64,000 nucleotides of DNA from an uncultured Gemmatimonadales bacterium (lineage in GTDB: Bacteria > ARS69): assembly GCA_963725045.1 (NCBI GenBank), contig CAVRWY010000002.1, positions 238,864 through 302,863 of the forward strand. Direction: 5' to 3'. The first letter of the stretch is position 1; each line of letters begins with the position of its first letter. Below the pieces are notes generated by a model that had not been told where the DNA came from, made no database searches, and saw only the letters and a program-made list of their open reading frames with translations. Of this stretch, positions 4,701-48,282 are shown in pieces. Position numbers and translations under genes: made by a program.

Positions 4701-5139
4701 CGCCGCGCTCTTCGGCTTCGACCTCACCGCAATGCTCTCGGATGCGGCGCGGGCATGCGTCCTGGGACGCGTGCTTTCGCAAGACATGGGAATTCTGATC
4801 CCGGCCGGAAATCTCTCCTGCGTCGCGAACGGGGTCGACGCGCCCATCGCCGCGGCGTCCTACGGCTTCTCGCTCGCCGGCGGGACGCCGAATCCCTTCG
4901 CGTCGACGACCAGCATTCGGTTCTCGCTGGCGGCGCGGACTGCGGTCCGCGTCGACGTGTACGACGTGCTCGGTCGCCGGGTGCGCACTCTGGCGAACGA
5001 GCGGCTCGACCCCGGTACTCACGTGCGCGACTGGGACGGTCGCGAAGATTCCGGGGCGCGCGCGACGAACGGTGTGTACTTTGTGCGAATGGCTGCGGGC
5101 ACGTTCGAAGCGACGCAGAAGCTCGTGATGTTGAAGTAG
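1779..5139 (+). CDS. Large secreted Cys-containing protein (~1100 aa) with immune-inhibitor-A/MAM-like jelly-roll segment and C-terminal FlgD-Ig domain; paralog 1 (frameshifted)
   Basis: Signal peptide MLSTHFIGLALRVTAGAILLTFSAAEA; FDVRYDTECNYDYLYVEYSTNAG motif; C-terminus PNPF...WDGR...GVYFVRM...TQKLVMLK. Joins ORFs 1725..4229, 3629..4555, 4458.. and 4591..5139, and is collinear with paralog 2. Confidence 0.8.
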
Positions 5140-5223: not shown

Positions 5224-8200
5224 GTGCTGAGGATTGACACCATCCGCGTCGCCCTTCTGGTGTCTGCATTCACGGCCTGCTGGATTGGCGTGACGGTGGC
5301 GCGAACGCCAGCGCCCTCCGATGATCAGCAGCAAGGCACGTCTCGCGAGGGGGGCGATCTCCCACAGTTCATCCACTCCGGCGGAGACACGACTTGGATC
5401 CGGGTTCATCCACCCGGCGCGTCGCCTTGCTCTCCTGCGGATATCGAAGATTCAGGCGCGGGACAGACGATCGAACACGTTTGGTGCTTCGAGGGTCCGG
5501 GCGGCGACAGCACTGGGAGAGCGATCCCAGCGGCAGTACCTGGAACCACTGGTCGAAGTTCGATCCGCCGGTGACACCGGCTTCCAAGTGGCATATGTCG
5601 CGTATGAATCCGAACGCGTCCAAGTGGAACGCGTGGGCCGGCTGCGACAGCATCGTCGGGTCGCCGGGTTACTCGAACAACGACGCGGCGTGCAGCGACA
5701 TCGACTTCTGGATCCGCCAGAAGGGCTACGGCGACGACTGGAACTACGCGCTGGAGCTCCGCGCGGCGGGAACGACGAAAGGCGCGTCCACCATCAAGTT
5801 CGACGTCCGCTACGACACCGAATGCAACTACGACTACCTGTACGTCGAGTACTCGACGAACAGCGGAACGACCTGGTCGTTCCTGCGTAAGGCGTATCCG
5901 TCCGGACCTCCCGCGGTGTTCAACTCGATCTCCGGGAACCACTGCATCACCGAGGGTGGAACGGGCCGCTGCTGCGGGACGGACTTCTTCGAGAACTCCG
6001 ACCAGTTCAATCCTGGCGGCGGCAACATCAACTGGAACGGCAGCAACCACTCCGAGTGGATTGCGAACGTGACGTTCACGATTCCGGGAAAGCGGCGGCG
6101 GAATTCGAGTCCGCTGGCGTGCGTTCTCCGACGGTGCCTGGTCCGACGAGGACGGCAGGAGACACGGACGGCCACTCGGCGGTCGACAACATCGTCCTCA
6201 CGGTCGACGACGACGGTACGGCGGCGGAGACGTTCGAGACGGAACGAACGGCGTTCATCTGACAACCGCGCGTGGCCGGCGAGACCATTCTCGGACGCCG
6301 GTCACGTTCGTCCGGCGACTCATCGGTGAGACCTACGACGGGTGGCACCTCGAGTTCGATCCGAAGTACTCGAACAAGGGCAACACCTGCGATTTCTCGG
6401 ATGACTGGATGTGGGCGGCGAAGCCGGCGGGCGGAGCGATCCCGGCCAACGGGTTCAACTTCTTCCTCGTTTCTCCGCGCATCAATTGCAACAATGGACG
6501 GGCGGAGTCGTGGAGTACGCTGAGTACCTCTGCTTGGACCCGCAGTCCACGACTACACGACCCAGCTCGTCCGTCTTTTGACGCGGCGAACCGGCTGGTC
6601 GCCGTGGGGTCCGAACGACTTCGAGGACTTCGGGTTGCGAGTTCTGGAACATGAACCGAACGACGACATCTCCCGTTTCCTGGGCACTTCGATCGATTCG
6701 CTTCAGGTTGCCTGGGAAATGCTCGACATCAACAAGCCCGGCGACTTCGAATGGGGCAAGCACGGTAGTGCAATACCTCATCGACAACGTGTCGTTCGGA
6801 AGCTTCGACGGTCAGGGAACGCACGTGTTCACGGCCCGCGCCATCGACATCTTCGCAGACACGTTCTCTCGCTCGGATCCCGCGCACACGCCGTTCCTCC
6901 AGAACGCCGAACAGGGCATCTGGCGGGGGTGATACGGTCGCGCCGGCGACCCGCGATTTCGCCAACGCCGATTCACTCAGCGTGCAAGTCCAGGATTTCA
7001 ACGGCGTGAATGCGTCGAACGTCGACCTCTGGTGGCGTCACGACAACGGCGGCGTGGCCTTTGGTGCGTTCAACAAGATCGACATGTCGTATGCGGTTCC
7101 GGATCCGCTCTCTCACGGATGAAGGCACGTACCGTGCCATCATCGGTCGGGACGACGGCACGGTGAATGACGCCTTCCCGCCGGCGGGCAACCGCCTCAT
7201 CTGGAAGGCAGCGACGACGGTGCAGTACTACTCGAAGGTGACCGACAACGGGGCGAACGTGCAGGTCTGGCCGAATACGGCAGACGATGCGTCGCCGATC
7301 TACTTCGAGTTCTCGGTGCTTCCGTTCGGCGAACTCACTCCGAGTGCACAGAGGATCCTTCTCGTGGACGACGTCGGCGGTCGCACCGCGGTCGACTTCG
7401 AGAACTCAGACGGATTCGTTGCCACCGGCGGTGCAGGCTTCGGGGACTTCGAAGAACCCGTCTTCGACGTACCGGAGAACCTGATCGAAGGTGCGCTGAC
7501 GCTTCTGTTCGGTGGATCCGAGACGGCTCCAAACTGGGACAAGTACGACGTCCAGGGTGCCGGATCGAGCGTGCAGTGCGAGCCTCGCGGCACGTCAAAC
7601 ACGTCGCTGGGTCTCGGTGGATTCATGTCGGATCTCGGCGCACCGCTGTACGACGTTCTGATCTGGCCGCAGCTGGATCTGGATGCGTACTCGTTCGCCG
7701 ATACGACCCGCCTCGAGCTGAAGACGTATCTCGACCGGAACGGGAACCTGTTCGCGACCGGTAACGAGATTGCGTTCCACCACGGCGCTGGCGGTAACAA
7801 CGCGGACTCCACGATCGGCTTCCTTGGCGACTACCTCGGGATCTCGTTCCCGAACGCCGCGGACGACGAGACGTTGGATCGCGTGCTGAACACCACGGGA
7901 GCCGCCGGGACCTCGCTCGCGAACGTCGAGCTGGGTGTCTACGGTGAGTGCCCGCGTCGGTGGTCGTTCGACAAGCTCACGCTGTCGGCTCCGGCCATCG
8001 GTTCTCAGAACACCATCCTCGCCAACTACACGGACAGCTCTCAGCCGGCTGACAACAACCGGGCTTCCGTGATCAAGAACGTCCGACGCGGAATCGACGG
8101 AACGTTCGGTACTCCGGACGACGGCGTTGCCGTCACCACCGGGTTCGACGTTTCGGCGCTCCTCTCGGATGCCGCACGCGCGTGCTTGATGGGACGCGTC

Positions 8201-8563
8201 CTGTCGCAGGATATGGGCATCGTGATTCCCCCGGGCCACATCCCCGGGTGCATCGGCACGGATGCTCCCGTCGTCGCAGCGTCCTACGGCTTCTCCCTCG
8301 CCGGCGGGACGCCGAATCCTTTCGCGTCATCGACCAGCATTCGATTCTCGCTGCCGGCGCGGAGTGGGGTGCGCATCGATGTGTTCGACGTGCTCGGCCG
8401 CCGCGTTCGCACTCTGGCGAACGAGCCACTGGACGCGGGCGTTCACCTGCGTCACTGGGACGGCCGCGAGGAATCCGGGGCACGCGCCACGAACGGCGTG
8501 TACTTCGTGAGGATGACGGCGGGAAACTTCGAAGCGACTCAGAAGTTGGTGATGTTGAAGTAG
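5224..8563 (+). CDS. Large secreted protein with FlgD-Ig C-terminal domain; paralog 2 (several frameshifts)
   Basis: GTG start after AAGGA, then a signal peptide. Same motifs as paralog 1 (HVWCFEG, SRMNPNAS, DTECNYDYLYVEYSTN, GRCCGTD, DDWMWAAKP) and an identical last 8 residues. Joins ORFs 5149, 5394, 6409, 6578, 6651 and 7010. Confidence 0.8.
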
Positions 8564-8589: not shown

Positions 8590-8634
8590 AAACGAAAGGG
8601 CCCCGGAGGTTCCCCTCCGGGGCCCGAATCGTTT
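8590..8634. terminator. Bidirectional intrinsic terminator between convergent genes
   Basis: GGGCCCCGGAGG-ttcc-CCTCCGGGGCCC stem flanked by AAACGA/TCGTTT. Confidence 0.7.
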
Positions 8635-8673
8635 GCACGCGACGCGACGGCGTCGTGTGCTGTTGCATCACTC

Positions 8674-9492
8674 CTATCGATACAAACCCTTCACACGTCC
8701 CCAGCTTGCCGCGTCCACCGAAACCGGCTCGCACAGATCATTGAACGTGATGTCCTTCCAATCGGCCGTGAGCGCTGCATTCGGGTTCCCGGCCTGCAGG
8801 AACGGCTGGAAGTGTCCGCCCGCCTGCGAGTCGTTCAGGATTCCCCAAAGCCCGTAGGGCGGGTCTTCGTCGGGATTGCCCTCGTCGAATGCGAGCGGCC
8901 CGCTGGTGTAGTGGTTCCCTTGATAATCGATTTCGTACTCGATCGTGCCCGGGCTCCCCAGCGAAAGCCCGTTCGGCAGATACGTGATGTGCAGGCCAAT
9001 CTCCGTGCCCTTCGTGTAATGCAGCCCGTGCTGCGCGGTGAACGAGTAGAACGGAAGCCGTCCTCCGAAGCAGGCGATCTCACCGTCCGTCGTGCGGACG
9101 TTGAAGCGACCATCCGTGTCGGAGTACCACGGGGAGATCTGCAATCCGCCTTCTCCCTCCGCAGGGCCGAAGACCGAGAGGGTCGCCGCGAACTCGAAGC
9201 AGGAATTGTTCGGGAAGAGCACCCCGGTGGCTCCGTCTTCCGAGAACTGCCACAGGTGCAAATTGGCGAAGCCGGCGCAGGACAAGTTCGCATCCTGGAT
9301 GAGGATCCCGGCGGGATAGAGATTCTGCGTCGTCAAGACCGAGAACGGGCAGTCGTTGAACACGCGCAGCAAAAGCACGGCGCTGTTCGGGCTCGGCGTC
9401 TGTGCGACGGCCGCCGTTCCGATGAATGTTCCGACCGCGAGCGCGAGAAGCGCCCCGCCGGCCGAACGAAACGAGTGGTTGCGAAGGCTCAT
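8674..9492 (-). CDS. Secreted protein (272 aa) ending in SWGRVKGLYR motif
   Basis: AGGAG RBS; ATG 9492; signal peptide ...ALLALAVGTFIGTAAVA-Q; beta-rich mature part; C-terminus CEPVSVDAASWGRVKGLYR. Confidence 0.8.
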   Translation of the reverse strand: MSLRNHSFRSAGGALLALAVGTFIGTAAVAQTPSPNSAVLLLRVFNDCPFSVLTTQNLYPAGILIQDANLSCAGFANLHLWQFSEDGATGVLFPNNSCFEFAATLSVFGPAEGEGGLQISPWYSDTDGRFNVRTTDGEIACFGGRLPFYSFTAQHGLHYTKGTEIGLHITYLPNGLSLGSPGTIEYEIDYQGNHYTSGPLAFDEGNPDEDPPYGLWGILNDSQAGGHFQPFLQAGNPNAALTADWKDITFNDLCEPVSVDAASWGRVKGLYR

Positions 9493-14893: not shown

Positions 14894-17312
14894 ATGCCGT
14901 TTGGTTCCACGGGCCGGCGTCTTTTCACGCTCGCCCTCTCGATCCTCGCTTCGTTCGTCGCCGCTCCTCCATCGTCGGCGCAGATCTACGATTCGGACAA
15001 CGTGGTCCTTCTCTCTCACCGCGATGAGTTCAGCGGCTACAGCGACATTTGGGGCTTCGTCGGGAACAACGGTCGCGAGTACGTCATCCTGCACACCACC
15101 ACCAGCTCGGCCTGGTACGACGTCGAGGACCCGGTTCATCCGGTCCTGGTCAAAGTGATCTCCGGTCCGCCCAGCTCGTGGCGGGATGCGTTCGACATCG
15201 GGAACTACGTGTACCTCGGGACGGAAGGCGGCGGCGGGATCCAGATCGTCGACATCAACAATCCCGCGAATCCCACGCTCGTCGGCGTGTATAACGCGAC
15301 CGTGGGGAACTCCCACACCGTGTTCGGCGATCGTGCGCGCAAGCTCCTCTACGTGATGGGCGGCAATGCGGACAACGCCAACGGCGGCTTGCAGATCCTC
15401 GATTGCACGAACCCCACGAATCTCGTCGAAATCGGACGCTGGGACAACGAGTACGTGCACGACGGATCGGTCGAGGGAAACATCGTCCACGTGAATCTCA
15501 TCAACGTCGGGAGATTCCGTCTCCTCAATCTGAACAATCCCGCGAACCCCGTCGGCCTCGGCACCGCGTTCTTTGATCCTACGGGGGCTTCGCACTCGTC
15601 GTGGCCCTTCGGCGACGGCGCGCACGTGATGATCACCGAGGAAACGACCGGCGGGCGCGTCAAGGTCGTGAACGTCTCCGTTCCCACCGCGATCACCGTC
15701 GTCGACGACTACAATCCCGCGCCGACCACCTCGTCGCACAATCCGCACATCCAGGGCAACATGGCGGCGGTCTCGTGGTACACGCGCGGCACGCGCCTGC
15801 TGGACATCTCCACGCCGGCCAACGTCACCGAGATCGGGTACTTCGACACGTTTCCGCAGAACGGCGGCACGTACTCGGGGAACTGGGGCACGTTCCCGCA
15901 CTTCCCGAGCGGGTTGATCGCTTCGAGCGACATCTCCAACGGGCTCTTCTTGATGCAGTACGACGCGAACGCCGGCAGAATCGACGGCACCGTGTCGTCT
16001 TCGGCGGGCGGCTTCCTGGCGAACGCGACGGTCGAGTACACGAACCTCGAGCTGACCCAGACCACCGGCACCAACGGCCAGTACCGGTTCGCGTGCTTCC
16101 CGGGAGCGGGAAACATCGTCGACTTCTCCGCGTTCGGTCACGTGCCCACGTCGATCAACGTGAACGTCGCGCCGAACGGCACGGTGACGACCCCGGTGGT
16201 GATGACGAAGCTGCCGGCGGGCGGACTCTCGGGAACGGTGACGAACTCGATCACGGCTCGCGCCGATCCAGGCGGTCGAGCTCTCCCTCGTGGGGACCCC
16301 GCTCACCACGACCACGAACGCGGCGGGGCAGTACTCCTTCCCCGACGTTCCCTCGGGCGCGTATCAGCTCCGCGTGCTCCGCTACGGCTTCTTCGTTCCG
16401 CCGAATTTCTCCGTGACGATCACGACAGGAAACATCACGACGCGGAACATCGCGTTGGATCCGGCTCCGGTGTACGAGGACTTCGCTGCGGTTCCGGGCT
16501 GGACCGTGAACAGCGACCCCTCGACCTCGAGCGGCATCTGGGTGTTCGGCGAGCCCTTCGGAACGTATTCGAACGGCGTGCCGTTCCAAACCGAGTTCGA
16601 TCACACGCTCGATCCCGAGAACCAATGCGCGATTACCGGGAATGCATCCGTCGGGGGACTCGGCGATGACGACGTGGACAACGGCGCGACGCGGCTCGTC
16701 TCGCCCGCCTTCAATCTCTCCTCGATGAGCGAACCGCACGTCTTCTACTACCGCTGGTACGCCCAGACGGAAGAAGGGGACGAGTTCGTCGTCGAGGCGA
16801 CGGGCAACGGCGGTGCCAGCTGGGTGGAGCTCGAAGGCACGTCGGTGAACGAGCCGAACTGGATCGGACGCGATTTCGACCTGAGCGGTCTTCTCGGGTC
16901 GTACAACGCGGTCCAGATCCGTTTCACGGCACAGGATCTCGGCCAAGGTCAGGTCGTCGAAGCGGCGGTCGACGACTTCACCATCTACGACGGCGGCTCG
17001 GCCACCGGGGTACCGCACGTGGATGCGCCGCGCATCCCGCTCGAGCTTTCGCAGAACGTCCCGAACCCGTTTGCGACCGTGACCGGAATCGCGTTCTCGA
17101 TTCCCGCGAAGACGCACGTGCAGCTTTCCGTGTTCGACGTGGCGGGACGGCGCATTGCCGTGCTGCAGGACGGCGAGCTGGAAGCGGGCGCGCACAGCGT
17201 GGTGTGGGACGGAAACGATTTCACCGGGAAGCGCGTCGCCAGCGGCGTGTACTTCTCCCAGCTGGTCACCGACGACCAGATTCGCACACGTAAGATGGTC
17301 CGGCTCGACTGA
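14894..17312 (+). CDS. Choice-of-anchor B (LVIVD-repeat) secreted protein with carboxypeptidase-regulatory-like domains and FlgD-Ig CTD; copy 1 (frameshift near 16262)
   Basis: Signal peptide; YSDIWGF..GREY, SWRD, YVHD, SHNPH, SWYTRG and WGTFPHFPSG motifs; GTV..AGQY repeats; DDDVDNG domain; PNPF...WDG...GVYF. Confidence 0.85.
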
Positions 17313-17335: not shown

Positions 17336-19753
17336 ATGCGCAACTTGCTTCGAACGAAGGGAACGTGGGCTCTCGCTTTGAGCGGGGCGGTGCTCGCGGT
17401 GGGCGGCTTCGATACGGCCGGAGCGGCCGTGAATGTGCTCTTCCATGCACAGCTCGACGAACACGTCGCTTACGCGAACATTTGGGGCTACACCGACCCT
17501 CAAGGTCGGGAATACGCACTCCTCGGGGCCACCACCGGACTTGCGGTGGTGAACCTCGAGGACCCGGCGAATCCCTACGAGACGGGATTCATTCCCGGTC
17601 CCACGTCCACGTGGCGTGAAGTGGTGTCGTACTCCCACTACGCCTACGTCGTCACCGAGGCCGGCGGAGGTCTCGAGATCGTGGATCTCGCGAATCCGGA
17701 AAACCCGGTGGGACTTGCGAACTACACCGGGTTCGACTCGGCCCATTCGATTCGCATCGATGCGGCCACGGCGCGCTGTTTCATCAACGGCTCCAACTTG
17801 GGCGCGGGCGGCATCCGGGTTCTCTCCCTCGCCAATCCGGTCGCTCCGGTGGAGATCGGGAGCTGGGAAACCCGCTACGTCCACGACTGCCACAAGGACG
17901 GAAACCGCATCTACGCGGCGTGCATCTTCGACGAACGATGCGACATCTTGAACGCCACGAATCCTTCTCCGCCGGCGACGCCCCTCGCATCGATCATGAA
18001 TTATCCCGACGCGTTCACGCACAACGCCTGGACCACCAGCGACGGCAACTACGTGATGACCACGGACGAGACCAGTGGGTCCAGCGTGCGGCTCTGGAAC
18101 GTGACGAATCTGTTGAACATCACGCAAGCCGATGCGTACCGGGCCACTCCGACGGCGCCGATTCCGCACAACGTGCACATCGACGGGGAGCTCGCTTACG
18201 TCTCCCACTACACGATCGGCGTCAAGATCCTGGACCTGACCAACCGCACCGACGTGGTCGAAGTCGCTTCCTACGACACCTACGCGCCGAACGACGGCGG
18301 GACGTTCGACGGATGCTGGGGCGTATTCCCGTACTTCGGCACGCACCCGAATCTCTTCGTCGCGAGTGACATTCAGGGCGGGCTCTTCGTCCTCGAGCAC
18401 GTTCCCAGCTCCGGAAACGTGACCGGAGAAGTGACCAAGGCCGGTGAGCCGGCGACGAAGATCGCCGGGGCCTCCGTGCAGGTGTTGGGAGGCGGTGCGC
18501 CCGTGCTCACCAACGACTTGGGTCAGTACGCGCTGGTCGCGCCGGCCGGTGCCCAGACCTTGGTGGTCTCCGCGTTCGGGTATCAGACGCAGCAGCTTCC
18601 GATCAACGTCAACGGCGGCGGCTCAATCATCGTGAACGTCGCCCTCCAGTCTCTGGGAGGCGGAATCGAAGGAACGGTGACGAACCAGATCACCTCCGCC
18701 CCGATCGCCGGAGCTCGCGTGCAGGTGCAATCGACGCCGCTGTCCCTGTTCACGAACGGTGCGGGACACTACGATTTCCCGTCCGTGCCGGCGGGTCCGC
18801 AGACGCTGATCGCCACGGCGTTCGGCTTCAACGGAAAGCGCATCGATATGAACGTGGTCGTGGGTTCCGAGTACACGATCAATTTCGCGCTTCCCGCGGC
18901 GCCGGTGTTCACGCCGTTCGAGAGCGGAGCCGGACTGTGGGCCATCACCGGGATCAACGGCGTTTCGGTCGGTCGGTGGCAGATCGGGAATCCCGAACCG
19001 ACCAACGGAGGCACCGTCCAAACCGGAGACGACCACACTGCTTCCCCCGGCGTGAATGCCTGGATCACCGGGCTCAGCGGCGGAGGCATCGGGGACAATG
19101 ACGTCGACGGGGGTGCCACGATCCTCACCTCGCCGATGTTCAGCACGATCGGGATGACGAATCCGCGCGTGAGCTACTGGCGCTGGTACGTGAGCGGAGT
19201 GACCACGAATCCGACGACGGACTTCTGGACCGTGGAGCTCACCACGAACGGCGGAGCGAATTGGATCGCGATCGAGAACACCGACGTGGCCACGCCTGCC
19301 TGGGTGAACGTCGACATTCCGCTGGGTCCTCCCTCGGGACTGACGCAGTTCAAGTTCACGGCACGCGACACCGGTCAGGGCTCGATCACCGAGGCGGGTC
19401 TCGACGACTTCATGCTCTACGAGGTCACGACCCAACCCGGGACGGATGCGCCGGTCGTGCTCCCCGGCGGCAAGCTTCGCTTGGATGCTCCGCGGCCGAA
19501 CCCGTTCCGCCTCGGTGAGTCCGCGACGCTGAGCTTCTCGCTTCCGAGCTCGGGGCCGGTCCACGTCCAGGTGTTCGACGTCTCCGGCCGCCGCGTGGCG
19601 ACTCTCTTGGAGTCGGTGTTGGGCGCCGGAACCTATCGGGTAACGTGGGACGGAAGAACCGAAGCAGGTGCTCCCGTTCCCGCGGGCGTTTACTTCGTGA
19701 AGCTCGACTCACCCGATGGAAAAGCCTCCCAGAGAACGCTGCTTTTGCGCTGA
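17336..19753 (+). CDS. Choice-of-anchor B secreted protein with FlgD-Ig CTD; copy 2
   Basis: Intact ORF with the same architecture as copy 1 (NIWGY..GREY, TWRE, YVHD, PHNVH, SHYTIG, WGVFPYF, DNDVDGG, PNPF...GVYFVKL). Confidence 0.88.
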   Translation: MRNLLRTKGTWALALSGAVLAVGGFDTAGAAVNVLFHAQLDEHVAYANIWGYTDPQGREYALLGATTGLAVVNLEDPANPYETGFIPGPTSTWREVVSYSHYAYVVTEAGGGLEIVDLANPENPVGLANYTGFDSAHSIRIDAATARCFINGSNLGAGGIRVLSLANPVAPVEIGSWETRYVHDCHKDGNRIYAACIFDERCDILNATNPSPPATPLASIMNYPDAFTHNAWTTSDGNYVMTTDETSGSSVRLWNVTNLLNITQADAYRATPTAPIPHNVHIDGELAYVSHYTIGVKILDLTNRTDVVEVASYDTYAPNDGGTFDGCWGVFPYFGTHPNLFVASDIQGGLFVLEHVPSSGNVTGEVTKAGEPATKIAGASVQVLGGGAPVLTNDLGQYALVAPAGAQTLVVSAFGYQTQQLPINVNGGGSIIVNVALQSLGGGIEGTVTNQITSAPIAGARVQVQSTPLSLFTNGAGHYDFPSVPAGPQTLIATAFGFNGKRIDMNVVVGSEYTINFALPAAPVFTPFESGAGLWAITGINGVSVGRWQIGNPEPTNGGTVQTGDDHTASPGVNAWITGLSGGGIGDNDVDGGATILTSPMFSTIGMTNPRVSYWRWYVSGVTTNPTTDFWTVELTTNGGANWIAIENTDVATPAWVNVDIPLGPPSGLTQFKFTARDTGQGSITEAGLDDFMLYEVTTQPGTDAPVVLPGGKLRLDAPRPNPFRLGESATLSFSLPSSGPVHVQVFDVSGRRVATLLESVLGAGTYRVTWDGRTEAGAPVPAGVYFVKLDSPDGKASQRTLLLR

Positions 19754-20706: not shown

Positions 20707-22314
20707 ATGGCACCTAGCTACAACCGCGTTCGCCGAGCTTTCCCGATCCGTCCCACAACGACCGCACTCCTTCTTCCGGCCCTGTTCCTGACTTTGGGCC
20801 TCGCCATGCCGCGTTGGGCTGGAGCGTCGTCGATTCGTCCGGATGGGCTCCTTCTCGTGAACGGGAAAATCATCTATCCCATCGGACTCGTCGAAATCGG
20901 GTCGGATCGGTACTCGGATTGGAACGACCGAATTCGCCAGTCGAAAGCAAACATCGTCTGGGACATCGAGCGGGCGTACATGAACACGGCGCCGACTTGC
21001 GCCGCGATCGTCGATTCCGCGGAAGCGACCGGCTACACGCTGCTCCTCGGCTCGGGGGACACGTGGAATTGGGACGACCCGGAAACTCCGCAGTACGAAG
21101 TCGACCAGTGGATGTACGAGCCCAACGAGCTCCAGCAGCTGCTGAATTGCCTCGGAAATCCGCAGTCCTTCGCCGGTTTCGCGAATCGCGACGAGCCCGG
21201 TTGGTGCATCTCGCGCGACATGATCGGCGACATCGATTTCCCGCACGTGTACGACACGTACGATCAGATCCACGACCATGTTTACACGGTCGTGGCGATG
21301 AACCATGCGCCCGTGCACCTCTCGGGAGACATCGAGCAGTGGAAGGACGAGATCATCTCGTATCGCGATGCGACCGACGCGGTGATGTTCGCGAGCTATC
21401 CCTACCCGGCCGGGCCCGGGACCTGCGGGGAATGGAACGTGCTCGGCTACCCGGAATGCCCCCTAGACCGCCTCGCGGTGGGCGCCGACATCTTCCGCCT
21501 CGAGCTCAACAAGCCCGGGCAACCTCTCTGGATGATCATCCAGGCGTTCAAGAACATCCCCCTCAAGGAAGCGCGCTGGGAGGCGTACGCCTCGATCATT
21601 CACGGGGCCAAGGGCATTTTCTGGGCGGGCTGGAACTGGACGCACATTCAGGGCAACGGCGAGCAGAACTGGCCGGTGATCAAGCAAGTGATCAACGAGA
21701 TCGCGTACTTCCATCCCTTCCTGGTCAAGAACGACGTCTCCGGAATCACCACCAGCGTTCCGGACGTGGAGGCCGCGGGAAAGCGCCTCCTGAACAACAA
21801 GACGGCGGTCTTTGCGATCTCCAGGAACGGGTACGCGGGGAACGCGTGGATCTACTTGCCGGGAGCCGGAAACGGTCGTGTGTTCCTCCCCCATGAAAAC
21901 GGTCGCTACATGTACGCCTCGAACGGTTGGATCACCGATCACTTCGAAGCGTACGAGGGACACGCCTATCGCTACCTGACCACGTCGGTCGCCGACGTAG
22001 ACGACGTGGGCGTCGGGGACCTTCCCTCGGTGATCGATCGCCTGACCGTGCAGTCGGCTCCGAATCCTTCCACGGGGATCACCACTGCTCAGTTCGCCCT
22101 TCCCGCGGATGCCGCCATCTCGATCACCGTCTACGATGCGGCGGGTCGAAAGGTCGCGGTGGCGGGAAGCGGAACGTTTGCGGCGGGACACCACGAGGTC
22201 GTCTGGAACGGTCGCGACGCGCGCGGCAACATGGTGGCCCCGGGGCTGTACTTCCTTCGTGCGGAAACGACGCGCGGGGAGACGGCTTCCGCGAAGGTCA
22301 TCATTCAGCGCTAG
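20707..22314 (+). CDS. Secreted glycoside-hydrolase-like (TIM-barrel) protein with FlgD-Ig CTD
   Basis: AGGAGG RBS; signal peptide ending WAGA-S; FANRDEPGW, YPYP, PLWMIIQAF and IIHGAKGIFW motifs; PNPS...WNGRD...GLYFLR. Candidate promoter TTGTGT-N18-TAGAAT at 20606-20635. Confidence 0.75.
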   Translation: MAPSYNRVRRAFPIRPTTTALLLPALFLTLGLAMPRWAGASSIRPDGLLLVNGKIIYPIGLVEIGSDRYSDWNDRIRQSKANIVWDIERAYMNTAPTCAAIVDSAEATGYTLLLGSGDTWNWDDPETPQYEVDQWMYEPNELQQLLNCLGNPQSFAGFANRDEPGWCISRDMIGDIDFPHVYDTYDQIHDHVYTVVAMNHAPVHLSGDIEQWKDEIISYRDATDAVMFASYPYPAGPGTCGEWNVLGYPECPLDRLAVGADIFRLELNKPGQPLWMIIQAFKNIPLKEARWEAYASIIHGAKGIFWAGWNWTHIQGNGEQNWPVIKQVINEIAYFHPFLVKNDVSGITTSVPDVEAAGKRLLNNKTAVFAISRNGYAGNAWIYLPGAGNGRVFLPHENGRYMYASNGWITDHFEAYEGHAYRYLTTSVADVDDVGVGDLPSVIDRLTVQSAPNPSTGITTAQFALPADAAISITVYDAAGRKVAVAGSGTFAAGHHEVVWNGRDARGNMVAPGLYFLRAETTRGETASAKVIIQR

Positions 22315-31044: not shown

Positions 31045-33189
31045 TCAGCGACCGTCCGAGACCAACGAGACTTTGCGAGTCACCACCCGTTCGTTCGCCT
31101 GAGCGCGCACGAAGTAGATTCCCGGAGCGACCCGACGCCCGCGGTCATCCGTTCCTTCCCAGGCGATGCGTGTCCGGCCCGACTCGACGAGTCCGTCGTG
31201 CAGGACGCGAACGACTCGGCCGGTCACGTCGTACACCGCGCACGCGACGTTTGCGACTCCGGGACGAGGAGCTCGAGCTCCGTGCTTCCGGTGAAGGGAT
31301 TCGGGCGCGGGTACGGAGAGTTGGAAATCCGCATCGATGTCGCTTCGCGCGACGTTCCGGTCGCGAGAATCGGTCGAACGGGCTGCGCCTCCATGGATGC
31401 ATCCGACTGTGCCCCGCTCTCGCAGGGCGCGCTCGTCGTGGAGCTGAATCCGGTGTAAGCGCGGGTTCAGCGGTGAGATGGGGATTGAATCCGTTGCAGT
31501 CGACGGCGCCGATGAATCCGGTCGTCGAGGGACCGAGGCAGAGCGTGCCCCCGGTATCCCAGACGATCCACGATCCGAGGAGGAAGGGTCCGGTTGCCGA
31601 GGATGGACAGCTTGGACCGCCAGAAGAAGGCTCGACGCCGAACCGACATTGAAGACGCCGTTCGCCGGATTGAAACCGAGCGGAGTGAGCGTTCCCTGCA
31701 CGCCGGTCTCCAGAGCCGAAAGGCCCGCATCGGAGCAGGTCATCCACAAGTAGATCGAGCGCGCGCCGCCGGTCGGAGTGGAAACATTCTCCGAGGGGTT
31801 CGTGGCACTCGAGCTGATCGAGAAGCGATAACCTGGGACAGGCGGCGGGGGCAGCAGGACGAACGTCGCCGTCTCCGAAATGGGGCTCCTCATCGTGACG
31901 GAAGCGGGATTGTTGGTGCCGCTGTAGGACCCGGTCCCCGTTCCGGTCCAAAGTGAGAACGCATTCCCCGCGACAGGACTCGCCACGATGGAAACGACCG
32001 AGCTGGTGTCGCGCCATCCGGAGCTCGGGGTGACGATTCCGGCACCCTGAGCCCCCATCGTGAGGAAGAATTGTCGCTTGTACGTGGCGGTGAACGTCGA
32101 AGGAGCCGCAGGAACGGTAATGGTATGCGAGGGCGCCCCTCCATCCGTCCAGGAGACGAAAGTCAGCGCGGAACCCACCGGGTTCTCGATCATGGAGTGC
32201 ACGGCAACCTTATGCCGCGAGTACTGGAGCCAGACGAACGTTGCCGGTGAAGTGCGCGCCACTCCGTCGATCGTCATGGGAAGGCCGGGAGGAAGCGTCG
32301 TCACCGTGACGGAGACGGGAAAGACTGGGCCACAGCCGACTCCATGCGCCCCCACGAGAATGTTGCAGGGGTTTCCTCCTGGCAGGCATGGAGATCCCGA
32401 TCTCAGCGTGTAGTTCGCGGCCGGAGCATCGCAGAACTGCGGATCGGCGGAGAAATTCCCCGTGCTCCCCGGGAGATAAGTTCCCGGTGGATTGCCGAAA
32501 ATGTCGGAACAGGTGACGAGCGCCGAACCCCATGCCTGGCCACTGTTCATCGCGATGATCGAGCGGTCGATTCGAGGTGCTGGCGTAGACCACTGAGGCT
32601 GAAGGATCGGACCCGCGGTGTTTCCGGTGATCGTGCAGTTCCGCAGCGTCATCGGATTCGTCAGGGATGTGTAGTAGGTGATCGTTCCTCCGACTCCGTA
32701 CCCTGGGGCTCTCTCGTTCCTGGCGATCGTGCACTCTTCCAGTCGGACGCGGCTGAACGCGGCGTAGATCGCGGCACCGACTCCGGACGGTTGGATCAAG
32801 TTCTCGGTGAATCGACAGCGGAGGAATTTCGGTTCCGAGTATCGAATGTAAGCCCCCGCCCCTTCGTAATCGTATCCATCATGAAGGGTGATTCCCTCGA
32901 TGACCGTCGAGGAATCGCAGGTGGAAATGTAAAGCACACGCGAAGCCCGATCCGCGTCGATGGTGACGCAAGACGGATCCCCGTTGAAACTCCGGAGGAC
33001 TACCCCGGATTTCATCTCGACGTCGTGCTCGAAATACGTCCCGCACGACACGACGACAGAGTCGCCGTACGACGCCGCATTGATTCCTGCCTGAATGGTG
33101 GGGGCGTCCGCAGGAACTCGCACGGTCGCGGATTCCGCGGCGAGGACGGAGGCGAGAAGAATCGAAATGGTCAGGGGCCAGAGACGCAC
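31045..33189 (-). CDS. Secreted protein with parallel beta-helix, InlB-B/Flg_new-like repeats and FlgD-Ig CTD (internal compensating frameshifts)
   Basis: Signal peptide; VPADAPTIQAGINAA..GD, GNFSADPQFC..YTLRSGSPC, FSLWTG.G.G motifs; C-terminus YDVTGR...WEGTD...GIYFVR...TRKVSL. Confidence 0.8.
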   Translation of the reverse strand: MRLWPLTISILLASVLAAESATVRVPADAPTIQAGINAASYGDSVVVSCGTYFEHDVEMKSGVVLRSFNGDPSCVTIDADRASRVLYISTCDSSTVIEGITLHDGYDYEGAGAYIRYSEPKFLRCRFTENLIQPSGVGAAIYAAFSRVRLEECTIARNERAPGYGVGGTITYYTSLTNPMTLRNCTITGNTAGPILQPQWSTPAPRIDRSIIAMNSGQAWGSALVTCSDIFGNPPGTYLPGSTGNFSADPQFCDAPAANYTLRSGSPCLPGGNPCNILVGAHGVGCGPVFPVSVTVTTLPPGLPMTIDGVARTSPATFVWLQYSRHKVAVHSMIENPVGSALTFVSWTDGGAPSHTITVPAAPSTFTATYKRQFFLTMGAQGAGIVTPSSGWRDTSSVVSIVASPVAGNAFSLWTGTGTGSYSGTNNPASVTMRSPISETATFVLLPPPPVPGYRFSISSSATNPSENVSTPTGGARSIYLWMTCSDAGLSALETGVQGTLTPLGFNPANGVFNVGSASSLLLAVQAVHPRQPDPSSSDRGSSGIPGARSASVPRRPDSSAPSTATDSIPISPLNPRLHRIQLHDERALRERGTVGCIHGGAARSTDSRDRNVARSDIDADFQLSVPAPESLHRKHGARAPRPGVANVACAVYDVTGRVVRVLHDGLVESGRTRIAWEGTDDRGRRVAPGIYFVRAQANERVVTRKVSLVSDGR

Positions 33190-33364
33190 GGTTCTCCCTG
33201 GGGGGAGCCCGAACGTACCACCGCCGGAATCGTGACTTCAAGGGGTGATTGCAACTTCCGAGGATGACCTTCGTCATGTTCCGATCGCTCGGATGTGCAT
33301 CGCATTCAGCGGCTGCCGTGGTGCCCCAGGCGCCGGCCCCGGACTGCGTTTCCCCTCCGGGATT

Positions 33365-36364: not shown

Positions 36365-37454
36365 ATGCCGACCCGGACAATTCGCTCTCGCGTTCCCCAT
36401 ATCTTGCTCCTCGTCGCCGCGCTTTTCGCGGGCGCGCTCGCGCCGCCGCTCGCGCGCGCGGAGACGAACATCGCCGCCGAGCCCTCCGGCGAGAACATCG
36501 TGACGATCGACGTCGGAGACGCCGTGATTCCCGTGCAGGAAGCGGCGTACTGGATCGTCGACACTGCGTCGCCCTCGATCCCGCTCATCGCTCGATTCTC
36601 CGTCGAACGGAACCGGCTCGGTCAACTTCGTCACCTACATTCAGCCGGGGATCGGGACCGTCTACTTCGAGCCGGGACAGCAGACGGCATCCGCTCAGGT
36701 GACTTTCCCTGCGGGTCCGCCGGAGGACACTTATCAAGGATGGGGCGCGAAATGGGCCTACTTCGCGCTCACGAAGACTTCGGGCGGAATCGAATGGGGA
36801 TTCCCGAACACGCTCTATTTCGCGCAGGTGTATCCGAACTTTCCGTCCGAACGCGGAGGAGACGACTGCGTCACTTGTCTTTGGGGCTGGCTGCTCTACG
36901 TGCTGAACATCTCGAATGATTACATCTGCGCCGCCGTGACCGAGCCGCAGCGACGCGAGCTCCCCGTGGATCCGAACGGAAGTGCGGCGCCACCGCAGAT
37001 CTCTGCGGGCGGGGAGAATGCGATGACTACGCTCCGCCGGTATCGCGACGAAGTGCTCGCGTCCAGCGCCGACGGACAGTTCTACGCCGATCTCTACACG
37101 GAGCACTCGCTCGATCTGTCTCGCGCGATCGTGGCGGCGCCGTCGCTGGCGGCGCGCCTCTTCAATGCGCACGGTGCGTGGGTCTCGGGAATCTCCGCGC
37201 TCGTGAACGGCACCGGCGGAACTTTCGTGGTGACGCAGCAGATGGAGGACGATCTGAATTCCCTGCTCGACACGTTCGAGTCGGTCGGAAGTCCCGCGCT
37301 GCAGCAGATGCTCGCGTTCGAGCGGGGCAGACTACAGCTCGACCAGATCGCCGGACTCTCGATGACCGAGTATCAGGAGCAGATCGAAACGCTTGGCGGA
37401 CCGACGGCCGTCGAGCCGGTGACGTGGGGGAGAGTGAAGTCGCTGTATCGCTAA
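36365..37454 (+). CDS. Secreted protein with CFI-box-CTERM-like module and C-terminal TWGRVKSLYR motif (frameshifted around 36600-36700)
   Basis: AGGAGG RBS; signal peptide ending LARA-E; TLRRYRDEVLASSADGQFYADLYTEHS; ends GPTAVEPVTWGRVKSLYR. Confidence 0.75.
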
Positions 37455-46482: not shown

Positions 46483-48282
46483 TTGCAGGACGCACTCCCC
46501 ATCTCGATCTCCGTTGTCATGACGTTGGTCACGCTCGCGAGCTCCGGGCCGCCGGATCCGGGGTCGGCGCGTGCACCCCAGGTGCCGCTCTCGTCCGGGG
46601 AAAACCGATGGTCCATCGTTGGTTCGCCCGCACTGGTGGACTCGAGCAGCACGACGGGATGCGCTTGGGGGGACTATGACGGCGACGGCGACGACGACAT
46701 CTTCTTCTCCAACGGCGACGTCCAAGGAAATCCGCACGATCAACTGATTCGCAACGATGGAGGGGGCGCGTTCACGATCGTGAACACGGGAGTCCTGGAG
46801 AGTCCCGGCCCCGAGCGGGCCGCGTACTGGGGGGACTACGACAACGACGGAGACCTCGATCTTCTCTCGGCGTCCTGGGGACCGGAGCGGCTCTATCGCA
46901 ACGACGGTCTCGGACATTTTCAGGAAGTCGTGGTGCCGGCGTTCCAGAACGGTTCGGATACGTTCGGCGCGGCTTGGGTCGACATCGACAACGACGGCGA
47001 CCTCGACTTGTCGTTCGCGCACGAAGACCAGCCTCCGCAGCTCATGCGCAACGACGGATCTTTCGGGTTCACCGAGGTCACGCCGCCCTCCTTCCTCGAA
47101 TTGAATCCGTCCTTTTCGATGGCGACGGCGTGGTCGGACATCGACGGTGACCGCGACCAAGACGTTTACATCGTGAGGAACTCGCTTCCCAATGTTCTGC
47201 TGCGCAACGATGGAGGGTTCGAGTTCACGGACATCACCGCGCCACCGATCGGCACGATCGGGGCCGGACACGGTGCCTCGTGGGGCGACGCCGACGGAGA
47301 CGGCCTTTTCGATCTGTACGTCACGAATCTGGGGACCGGGAACAGATTGTTCCGCAACCTCGGCAACGGCACGTTCAGCGACATGACCTTCGGAGAGCCG
47401 GCGGCTTCCGGCTACAGCGCCGGGTGCGCGTGGGGAGACTACGACAACGACGGGCGCCTCGACCTCTACTTCACGAATGCGTTTGCGGTGAACAAGCTCC
47501 TGCACAACGAGGGGAATTTCCAGTTCACGTTCGCGAGCGAAGGACCCCTGCTCTTGGTCGGTGTCGGGGGTGGAACTTCGTTTTGCGACTTCGATCTGGA
47601 CGGCGATCTCGACCTTCTGCTGGCGAATCTCGACGAGCCCCAATCGAACCGGCTCTTTCGCAATGGCCGTGCGCCGGACAGCGGTTTCCTTGAAGTCTCG
47701 CTGGCAGGGACCACGTCGAACCGGTACGGAATCGGAGCGCGCATCGGAGTGTGGGCGAACGGTCTCGAGCAATGGCGTGAGATCTCCGCGGGATCCGGTT
47801 TCTCTTCCGAAGATCCTCTCCGCGCCCACTTCGGTTTGGGCGACGCACCCTCGAGTGGATCGGGAATCGATTCCGTCGAAGTGCAGTGGCCCTCGGGGAT
47901 CGATCAAGTGGTGCGGGACATCGCGGTGAATCAGCGCATCACCATCGTGGAGACGGATCCCGCGACGGGGATCCCGGGCCACGACGAAGGAACCCCGGCG
48001 TCGCTCACGACGGAAATCGTCTCCATCCGCCCGAACCCGTTCCGCGACGCCGCGTCGATCGTCGTGCGTCTCACGCGGGCCGGAGTCGCAGGGCTTGCGA
48101 TCTTCGATGTCCAAGGACGTCGCGTGCGGCACTGGAATGCGACGCAGCTTCCCGAAGGCGAATCGGTCATTTCGTGGGATGGTGCGGACGAAGACGGCGC
48201 GCCGCTTCCCGCGGGCGTTTACTGGGCGCGACTGCAGAGCGAGGCAACGACCCGTACCCGAAAGCTCGTTCTCATTCAGTAG
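46483..48282 (+). CDS. FG-GAP/VCBS repeat protein with ASPIC/UnbV domain and FlgD-Ig CTD (start approximate)
   Basis: Seven W/F-x-DxDxDGDxD repeats; SNRYGIGAR, HFGLG and WPSG (UnbV); PNPF...WDG.D...GVYW. Confidence 0.88.
   Translation: MQDALPISISVVMTLVTLASSGPPDPGSARAPQVPLSSGENRWSIVGSPALVDSSSTTGCAWGDYDGDGDDDIFFSNGDVQGNPHDQLIRNDGGGAFTIVNTGVLESPGPERAAYWGDYDNDGDLDLLSASWGPERLYRNDGLGHFQEVVVPAFQNGSDTFGAAWVDIDNDGDLDLSFAHEDQPPQLMRNDGSFGFTEVTPPSFLELNPSFSMATAWSDIDGDRDQDVYIVRNSLPNVLLRNDGGFEFTDITAPPIGTIGAGHGASWGDADGDGLFDLYVTNLGTGNRLFRNLGNGTFSDMTFGEPAASGYSAGCAWGDYDNDGRLDLYFTNAFAVNKLLHNEGNFQFTFASEGPLLLVGVGGGTSFCDFDLDGDLDLLLANLDEPQSNRLFRNGRAPDSGFLEVSLAGTTSNRYGIGARIGVWANGLEQWREISAGSGFSSEDPLRAHFGLGDAPSSGSGIDSVEVQWPSGIDQVVRDIAVNQRITIVETDPATGIPGHDEGTPASLTTEIVSIRPNPFRDAASIVVRLTRAGVAGLAIFDVQGRRVRHWNATQLPEGESVISWDGADEDGAPLPAGVYWARLQSEATTRTRKLVLIQ

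Follow-up and report, generated by a model that had tools for sequence, protein, structure and literature searches.

Two genes in the 64-kb stretch of DNA analysed here (the window) encode proteins that end, immediately before the stop codon, in the same motif, (S/T)-W-G-R-V-K-x-L-Y-R. Is this ending a signal that decides the fate of the proteins, and if so, which machinery reads it? A preliminary description had proposed that it is an undescribed sorting signal shared by unrelated secreted proteins. Our analysis indicates that the tail, about 17-20 residues long and carried at the C-terminus of Sec-exported proteins, is most probably a module dedicated to sorting. As read from the sequences, the module joins a junction that resembles a cleavage site, P-[VT]-[SAP]-[VT]-[ED], to an invariant terminus, [ST]-W-G-x-[IV]-K-x-[LM]-Y-R-COOH. 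That its sorting is linked to the type IX machinery for secretion and attachment (T9SS) is the mechanism that we favour, a serious possibility which we put forward tentatively.

Proteins A and B and their common ending

Protein A consists of a Sec signal peptide, a ConA-like jelly-roll domain, a flexible linker and the tail (Table 1). Its N-terminus is of the Sec type (MSLRNHSFRSAGGALLALAVGTFIGTAAVA, followed by Q) and the sequence AGGAG is found 8 nt 5' of the ATG. The AlphaFold2 model of the protein has a mean pLDDT of 86.9 and its ConA-like jelly roll is confident; the neighbours found with Foldseek are lectin-like and polysaccharide-lyase-like jelly rolls, all of them weak (TM about 0.4). 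After the jelly roll the model has a disordered linker, residues 253-263, and then a short helix, W264-L270, so that the short helix proposed for the motif is indeed predicted, at low confidence. A second AlphaFold2 model, made for a small tandem family from a 5-row alignment, has a mean pLDDT of 33 and is unusable. The protein ends in ...CEPVSVDAASWGRVKGLYR-TAG, that is, C-E-P-V-S-V-D-A-A-S-W-G-R-V-K-G-L-Y-R-stop. A G+C-rich inverted repeat (ccccggagg ggaa cctccgggg, window 8600-8640) lies between the gene for A and the convergent gene 7010-8563(+), and is probably the terminator hairpin shared by the two.

Table 1. Positions of the features discussed, numbered from the first nucleotide of the window
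Feature	Position	Strand	Basis or detail
Protein A gene, 272 aa plus stop	8674..9492	-	ORF and sequence reading
Signal peptide of A, residues 1-30, ending AVA before Q	9403..9492	-	direct sequence reading
Mature domain of A, residues 33-252, beta-sandwich	8737..9396	-	AlphaFold2, Foldseek
Junction of A, P-V-S-V-D, cleavage-site-like	8713..8727	-	sequence, motif enrichment, low-pLDDT linker 253-263
Tail core of A, S-W-G-R-V-K-G-L-Y-R	8677..8706	-	TAG stop at 8674-8676
FlgD/T9SS type A CTD of convergent neighbour gene 7010-8563(+)	8312..8551	+	PF13860 E 5e-9, TIGR04183 E 2.3e-9
CTD-bearing ORF, 730 aa	31045..33237	-	mature modules homologous to two tail-bearing families
Protein B, N-terminal part with signal peptide, frame 2, up to inferred frameshift	36365..36625	+	
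Protein B, tail-bearing frame, 308 codons stop-to-stop plus TAA	36528..37454	+	frames meet near 36600-36625
Junction of B, P-T-A-V-E	37401..37415	+	
Tail core of B, T-W-G-R-V-K-S-L-Y-R	37422..37451	+	TAA stop at 37452-37454
All CTDs of the window	4888-5127, 8312-8551, 17061-17300, 19496-19735, 22060-22308, 31069-31251(-), 48028-48270		

Protein B ends in ...GGPTAVEPVTWGRVKSLYR-TAA, or G-P-T-A-V-E-P-V-T-W-G-R-V-K-S-L-Y-R-stop. Both endings are as first described, and A and B are non-homologous, with no mutual match in an all-against-all BLAST (E 1e-4) in which the tails were masked. The accompanying claim, that both proteins have a Sec signal peptide, holds for A. In the window it fails for B: the span 36365-37454 is 1090 nt long, which is not divisible by three, and the ORF with the signal peptide (36365-36919) and the ORF with the tail (36528-37454) are in different frames, so that a signal peptide is joined to B only by reading through one frameshift near 36600-36625. 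Orthologues of B, found at four places in three sister genomes, hold signal peptide, mature part and tail in one frame and align to both frames of the window, which places the single frameshift near 36600-36625; the copy of B in the window is therefore an assembly error or a pseudogene. The middle of B (residues 164-208 of the 36528-37454(+) ORF) gives a weak match to the NCBIfam model CFI_box_CTERM (E 7.5e-5, 22.5 bits against a cut-off of 40), and the segment concerned, ...RYRDE[IV]L...GQ[FY]Y..LY..., is kept in the orthologues.

B is not the only gene of this genome, hereafter G000, to be split into adjacent ORFs of different frames: the same is seen for SprA (three ORFs, contig C9:121951-128004) and PorU (two ORFs, C8:396322-399740), and about 18 of the tail ORFs described below start in the middle of a domain. 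The assembly, which is 73% complete, seems to carry many indel errors or pseudogenes.

Occurrence of the tail within and across genomes

G000 (3.41 Mb in 18 contigs, 66.5% G+C) was translated in six frames. The core [STA]W[GA]x[VIL]Kxx[YFW][RK] occurs 49 times in the resulting 33,765 ORFs, where chance would give 0.08 occurrences anywhere and 0.001 at ORF ends; 44 of the cores lie no more than one residue from the stop codon, five lie 4-18 residues from it, and none is deeper. Together with the variants SWGRTKVLFR and SWSRIKATYR there are 51 tail ORFs, each with its motif no further than 18 residues from a stop, which, once the tails are masked, fall into 35 unrelated BLAST clusters, 28 of them singletons, so that the motif is not limited to the two proteins in which it was noticed. 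For the 44 tails with nothing beyond the motif, the consensus reads (C)-x-P-V-S-V-E-x-x-S/T-W-G-x-I/V-K-x-L-Y-R; W and K are present in 100% of these tails, G and R in 95% and Y in 90%, and the K is also invariant in 69 aligned family members. Synonymous third codon positions vary among the tail genes, all three stop codons occur, and the downstream DNA is unrelated; conservation of the tail thus acts on the protein, and a DNA or RNA repeat is ruled out.

An in-frame Sec-like start is found in 33 of the 51 tail ORFs, one of which, an internal GTG in B, was judged spurious by eye. The enrichment in signal peptides that had been suggested as a check is also found: with a lenient heuristic for calling signal peptides, and a crude gene set as the background, signal-peptide-like starts were scored in 25/36 tail genes, 66/113 genes for proteins with a C-terminal domain (CTD) of the FlgD/T9SS type, and 747/2518 other genes of G000. 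In two better-assembled genomes the same heuristic scored 34 of 41 tail genes and 125 of 333 neighbouring genes, and the median tail protein is 236 aa long. The tail cargo is mostly devoid of recognisable domains, as 8 of 12 tail ORFs of G000 and 32 of 36 from two other genomes, G043 and G005, have no Pfam match; those with a match in G043 and G005 are CHRD (twice), DUF7450 and a beta-helix. The median ORF of the tail cargo in G000 measures 238 aa, against 466 aa for the CTD cargo, and this smaller size may reflect a different destination. In the genome G011, ten strict matches to the tail are found within 13 kb (C6:9858-22876), seven of them spaced by about 640 nt; this cluster is made of tandem arrays of small tail-bearing paralogues.

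The distribution of the tail was assessed with a DNA pattern, TGGGGNNNNRTNAARNNNNNNTAYMGNTRR. All 12 genomes examined from the GTDB phylum of the window contain it, with 17-48 matches each and none for a reversed control pattern, while none of 29 genomes of other families does. The phylum to which the 'Fibrobacteraceae' and 'Latescibacteria' records belong has matches in 140 of the 151 genomes sampled, and that of an 'Eisenbacteria' record in 57 of 61, a tally that takes in one genome flagged as unpublished (G219). A stricter pattern, applied to one genome per species, gave at least 127 loci. The titles among the matches listed are mostly Candidatus Eisenbacteria, the others being Krumholzibacteriota, Latescibacteria, Effluviviaceae, 'uncultured Fibrobacteraceae', 'uncultured Gemmatimonadota' and 'bacterium'; no cultured host is present among the matches listed, all of which are MAGs. 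When 124 of these loci were translated, the residue ahead of W, which the pattern leaves unconstrained, was T or S in 113, and the consensus, P-[VT]-[PAS]-[VT]-E-x-x-[TS]-W-G-x-[IV]-K-[AS]-[LM]-Y-R, includes the junction. The tail thus spans at least three GTDB phyla and, in a given genome, occurs on dozens of secreted proteins that are unrelated to one another.

No description of the tail was found in Pfam, NCBIfam or the searchable full-text literature, in agreement with its having been called undescribed, although journals beyond that literature may hold one. None of ten tails, taken as 39-40 residues, matches a model of Pfam-A or NCBIfam at E values up to 10, the sorting-signal models of NCBIfam included, and A and B as whole proteins have no sorting-signal or CTD match in Pfam or NCBIfam. 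We regard the tail as a real and widespread C-terminal tag that apparently lacks an annotation. As with the signals read by exosortases, archaeosortases, rhombosortases and sortases (PEP-CTERM, GlyGly-CTERM, LPXTG), many unrelated secreted proteins of one genome share a short C-terminal tag that is specific to a lineage, and a small signature motif marks the junction. In signals of that type, however, the signature motif is followed by a transmembrane helix and then a basic cluster, whereas the tail has only about 12 residues past the junction and no hydrophobic span. With C-terminal amphipathic helices that bind membranes, of which that of E. coli PBP5 is an example, the tail shares aromatic and basic residues at the end of a Sec-exported protein; the sequence of such helices, however, is not conserved across unrelated proteins, while the tail keeps five near-invariant positions across phyla.

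The tail and the CTD of type IX cargo

Seven FlgD/T9SS type A CTDs are present in the window, alongside the two tail genes. G000 as a whole has 141 ORFs with a CTD according to a profile of our own (TIGR04183 gives 130 matches and PF13860 gives 142), and in no ORF does a CTD occur together with one of the 51 tails. The preliminary description held that the tail is interchangeable with the CTD, and the relatives of protein A bear this out. Its short relatives, of about 265 aa, number 1109; among the 120 of them listed, the strict tail is present in 68 and a variant of it, such as ...HR, ...YSR or FGxVK, in most of the remainder. Of 77 long relatives (480-1283 aa), in contrast, 59 have PF18962 and/or PF13860 and none ends in the tail. 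Within G000 a beta-helix family and the small tandem family likewise share modules with CTD proteins, including the window ORF 31045-33237(-). These findings support the view that, on homologous cargo, the tail and the FlgD/T9SS CTD alternate in one and the same position.

The likeness of the junction to the linker that precedes the CTDs, another element of the preliminary description, also stands. The pattern [TVS][GSA][VI][EDG] lies ahead of 25 of the 51 tails (control mean 0.2, maximum 2) and occurs in 21 of the 69 linkers that precede CTDs (control mean 2.1, maximum 6); a simpler junction pattern is likewise common to tails and linkers. In Prevotella intermedia a sortase cleavage consensus, PT/GI, is placed in the coil ahead of the CTD, according to the excerpted text of PMC11969387. 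Outside the phylum of the window, most junctions read [VT]-P-[VT]-E, a poorer fit to PT/GI.

Both the tail and the T9SS type A CTD (TIGR04183, PF18962, PF13860) are thus C-terminal on Sec-exported cargo, with a similar junction in a flexible linker ahead, and the tail, like the CTD, is confined to T9SS-bearing phyla among those sampled. The two also resemble each other, as far as the sequence pattern goes, in a conserved Lys near a hydrophobic, basic C-terminus, the endings in G000 being T-R-K-phi-V-L-L-R for CTDs and K-x-L-Y-R for tails, and in an apparent tolerance of extension. In section 2.2 of PMC11285876, the last strand of the CTD has a conserved Lys, and the C-terminus of the CTD can be extended with retention of function but not replaced; the invariant K of the tail and its extensions of 1-18 residues match these properties by pattern only. 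In other respects the two differ. The CTD, of 40-100 residues, is defined as an Ig-like beta-sandwich or a sheet of at least three strands, with at least 40 aa and motifs B and D; the tail, of 17-20 residues, has no sandwich or sheet and is too short even for three strands, is predicted with low confidence to be helical, and lacks both motif B (PNPF) and motif D (GxY). Moreover, a comparison by hhalign of the tail profile with the CTD profile of G000 found no similarity (probability 0.13%, E 0.43), and the idea that the tail is a remnant or fragment of a CTD is unsupported by this comparison. We know of no T9SS CTD with an invariant W-G, and, to our knowledge, the T9SS signals characterised so far are all folded domains of 40-100 residues. 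The excerpts of PMC11969387 describe 'short' CTDs of P. intermedia, of 40-55 residues, that are modelled as three strands and retain motifs B, D and E. In the model it is the loop of motif B that reaches furthest into PorV, and the last 22 residues of HBP35 are cited there as the essential part.

How the tail may be read

G000 encodes SprA, PorU and, adjacent to the latter, a PorV-like barrel, so that, as is characteristic of T9SS cargo, the tail proteins combine a Sec signal peptide with a genome that has SprA, PorV and PorU. In the phylum for which 151 genomes were sampled, SprA is present in 150 of them, including all 11 without a tail; since SprA is there with or without tails, its co-occurrence with the tail does not discriminate. 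Co-folding the PorV-like barrel (residues 35-361) with the 32 C-terminal residues of A scored 0.00, which gives no answer and weighs neither way. When all the genes lying up to 3-5 kb from tail genes were clustered for G000, G043 and G005, only CTD genes and Ser/Thr kinases recurred; no partner gene or receptor recurs significantly beside the tail genes in these three genomes. A CTD gene adjoins 7 of 44 tail loci (P = 0.27, not significant). Of the 39 tail loci of G000, 5 have within 3 kb a gene for a protein made of a kinase, a transmembrane helix and TPRs, and such genes are also found near tail genes in G005 and G043; this adjacency is not significant either (P = 0.07 for 3 kb, 0.27 for 5 kb). 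No receptor or transpeptidase for the tail was identified.

If sorting is coupled to the T9SS, the tail would be read, after Sec export, by the same machinery that handles the CTD, the readers being the PorV-like carrier and the PorU sortase encoded in G000, or the translocon. The junction would be the sortase site, at which the protein would be cleaved, and the K...Y-R end would stand in for the conserved Lys-containing C-terminal motif of CTDs. The tail would then represent an extreme shortening of a T9SS signal. We consider this coupling at least as likely as a separate second route, because the junction is shared and because a shortening of T9SS signals is described in the available text of PMC11969387.

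The separate route, the principal alternative, is possible, if on balance doubtful. It would involve docking of an amphipathic aromatic-basic helix, with W, I/V, L and Y on one face and K and R flanking it, to a dedicated receptor or to the outer-membrane/LPS surface, so that small secreted proteins are held at the envelope without the T9SS. Consistent with it are the low-confidence helix (residues 264-270) predicted on a disordered linker, the lack of a sequence relation between tail and CTD by hhalign, the nature of the tail cargo as a distinct class of small proteins mostly without a Pfam domain, and the fact that tail and CTD never occur together, as expected of two alternative fates. Yet the near-invariance of W, G, K, Y and R across cargo and phyla speaks for a receptor that is a protein and against simple binding to lipid, and no candidate receptor gene recurs near the tail genes of the three genomes; moreover, docking of this kind leaves unexplained why the junction is common to the pre-CTD linkers. 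We regard with similar reserve the broader proposal that several uncultured FCB-type phyla have a sorting or anchoring pathway of their own, independent of the T9SS and with its own putative receptor or processing enzyme. It is unlikely that the tail governs maturation or turnover rather than location, as a recognition peptide for a periplasmic protease or chaperone that reads C-termini, such as PDZ-containing S41 or tricorn-like peptidases. PDZ domains do read C-termini, the position of the tail is strictly C-terminal, and a tricorn-like PD40 + PDZ + S41 peptidase is encoded 2.2 kb from one tail gene (on contig C18); this is, however, the only such adjacency, extensions of 1-18 residues past the motif are tolerated, which is a poor fit to recognition of a free carboxylate, and the alternation with a secretion domain would be unaccounted for.

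Two further roles would centre on single features of the tail or of its surroundings. E. coli Lpp, which ends in ...Y-R-K, is attached to peptidoglycan by an L,D-transpeptidase, and by analogy the Lys of the tail, invariant in the 69 aligned family members and in all 44 exact-end tails of G000, within a ...K-x-L-Y-R end reminiscent of Lpp, could be a point of covalent attachment, for example to peptidoglycan. We hold this to be very unlikely, as the Lys of the tail lies five residues from the end and is not terminal, and as the cargo resembles lectins, lyases and beta-helix proteins, which are typical surface or secreted proteins. TPR domains bind C-terminal peptides in other systems, and periplasmic TPR domains, present in the receptor Ser/Thr kinases beside some tail clusters, might have the tail as their ligand. 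Apart from the adjacency not being significant, about 30 kinases would face about 50 tails of identical sequence, and such a role seems exceedingly improbable.

If coupled to the T9SS, the tail may be the smallest T9SS signal yet known, with a bearing on what PorV, PorU and the translocon recognise, and it would offer a short secretion tag. Alternatively, the tail would mark a separate route of envelope sorting and, should the pathway be one of its own, would stand for a class of sorting signal that is new in diderm bacteria, linear, C-terminal and without a transmembrane segment. In either event, the tail provides a handle on neglected small secreted proteins, mostly domain-less, of which there are tens per genome in hundreds of uncultured genomes, and it is ready for a family model, for use in annotation, and for experiments at the peptide level.

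Three further observations concern individual tail loci and the tail itself. At one locus of G000 (C17:80514-86718), five tandem tail genes lie on the same strand directly downstream of a gene for a 964-aa receptor kinase with a transmembrane helix and TPRs; similar kinases are those near the four other tail loci of G000. At another (C18:16877-22469), an ORF of 1198 codons with a Peptidase_C25 domain (E 1.2e-53), whose ends look frameshifted, lies directly downstream of the gene for a 603-aa beta-helix tail protein, on the same strand, and an ORF with FG-GAP and a FlgD-type CTD comes next. This C25 peptidase was dismissed as a partner of the tail, being a single case beside one tail gene, and so was the tricorn-like S41 peptidase, a single case near another. 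Lastly, a Cys is frequent 18-20 residues from the end, just ahead of the junction (in A at window 8731-8733). It is the commonest residue at position -19 in the tails of G000 (29%), and in the other genomes 70 of the 124 tails have a Cys within the 15 residues ahead of the [ST]-W-G core (-25 to -11 from the end).
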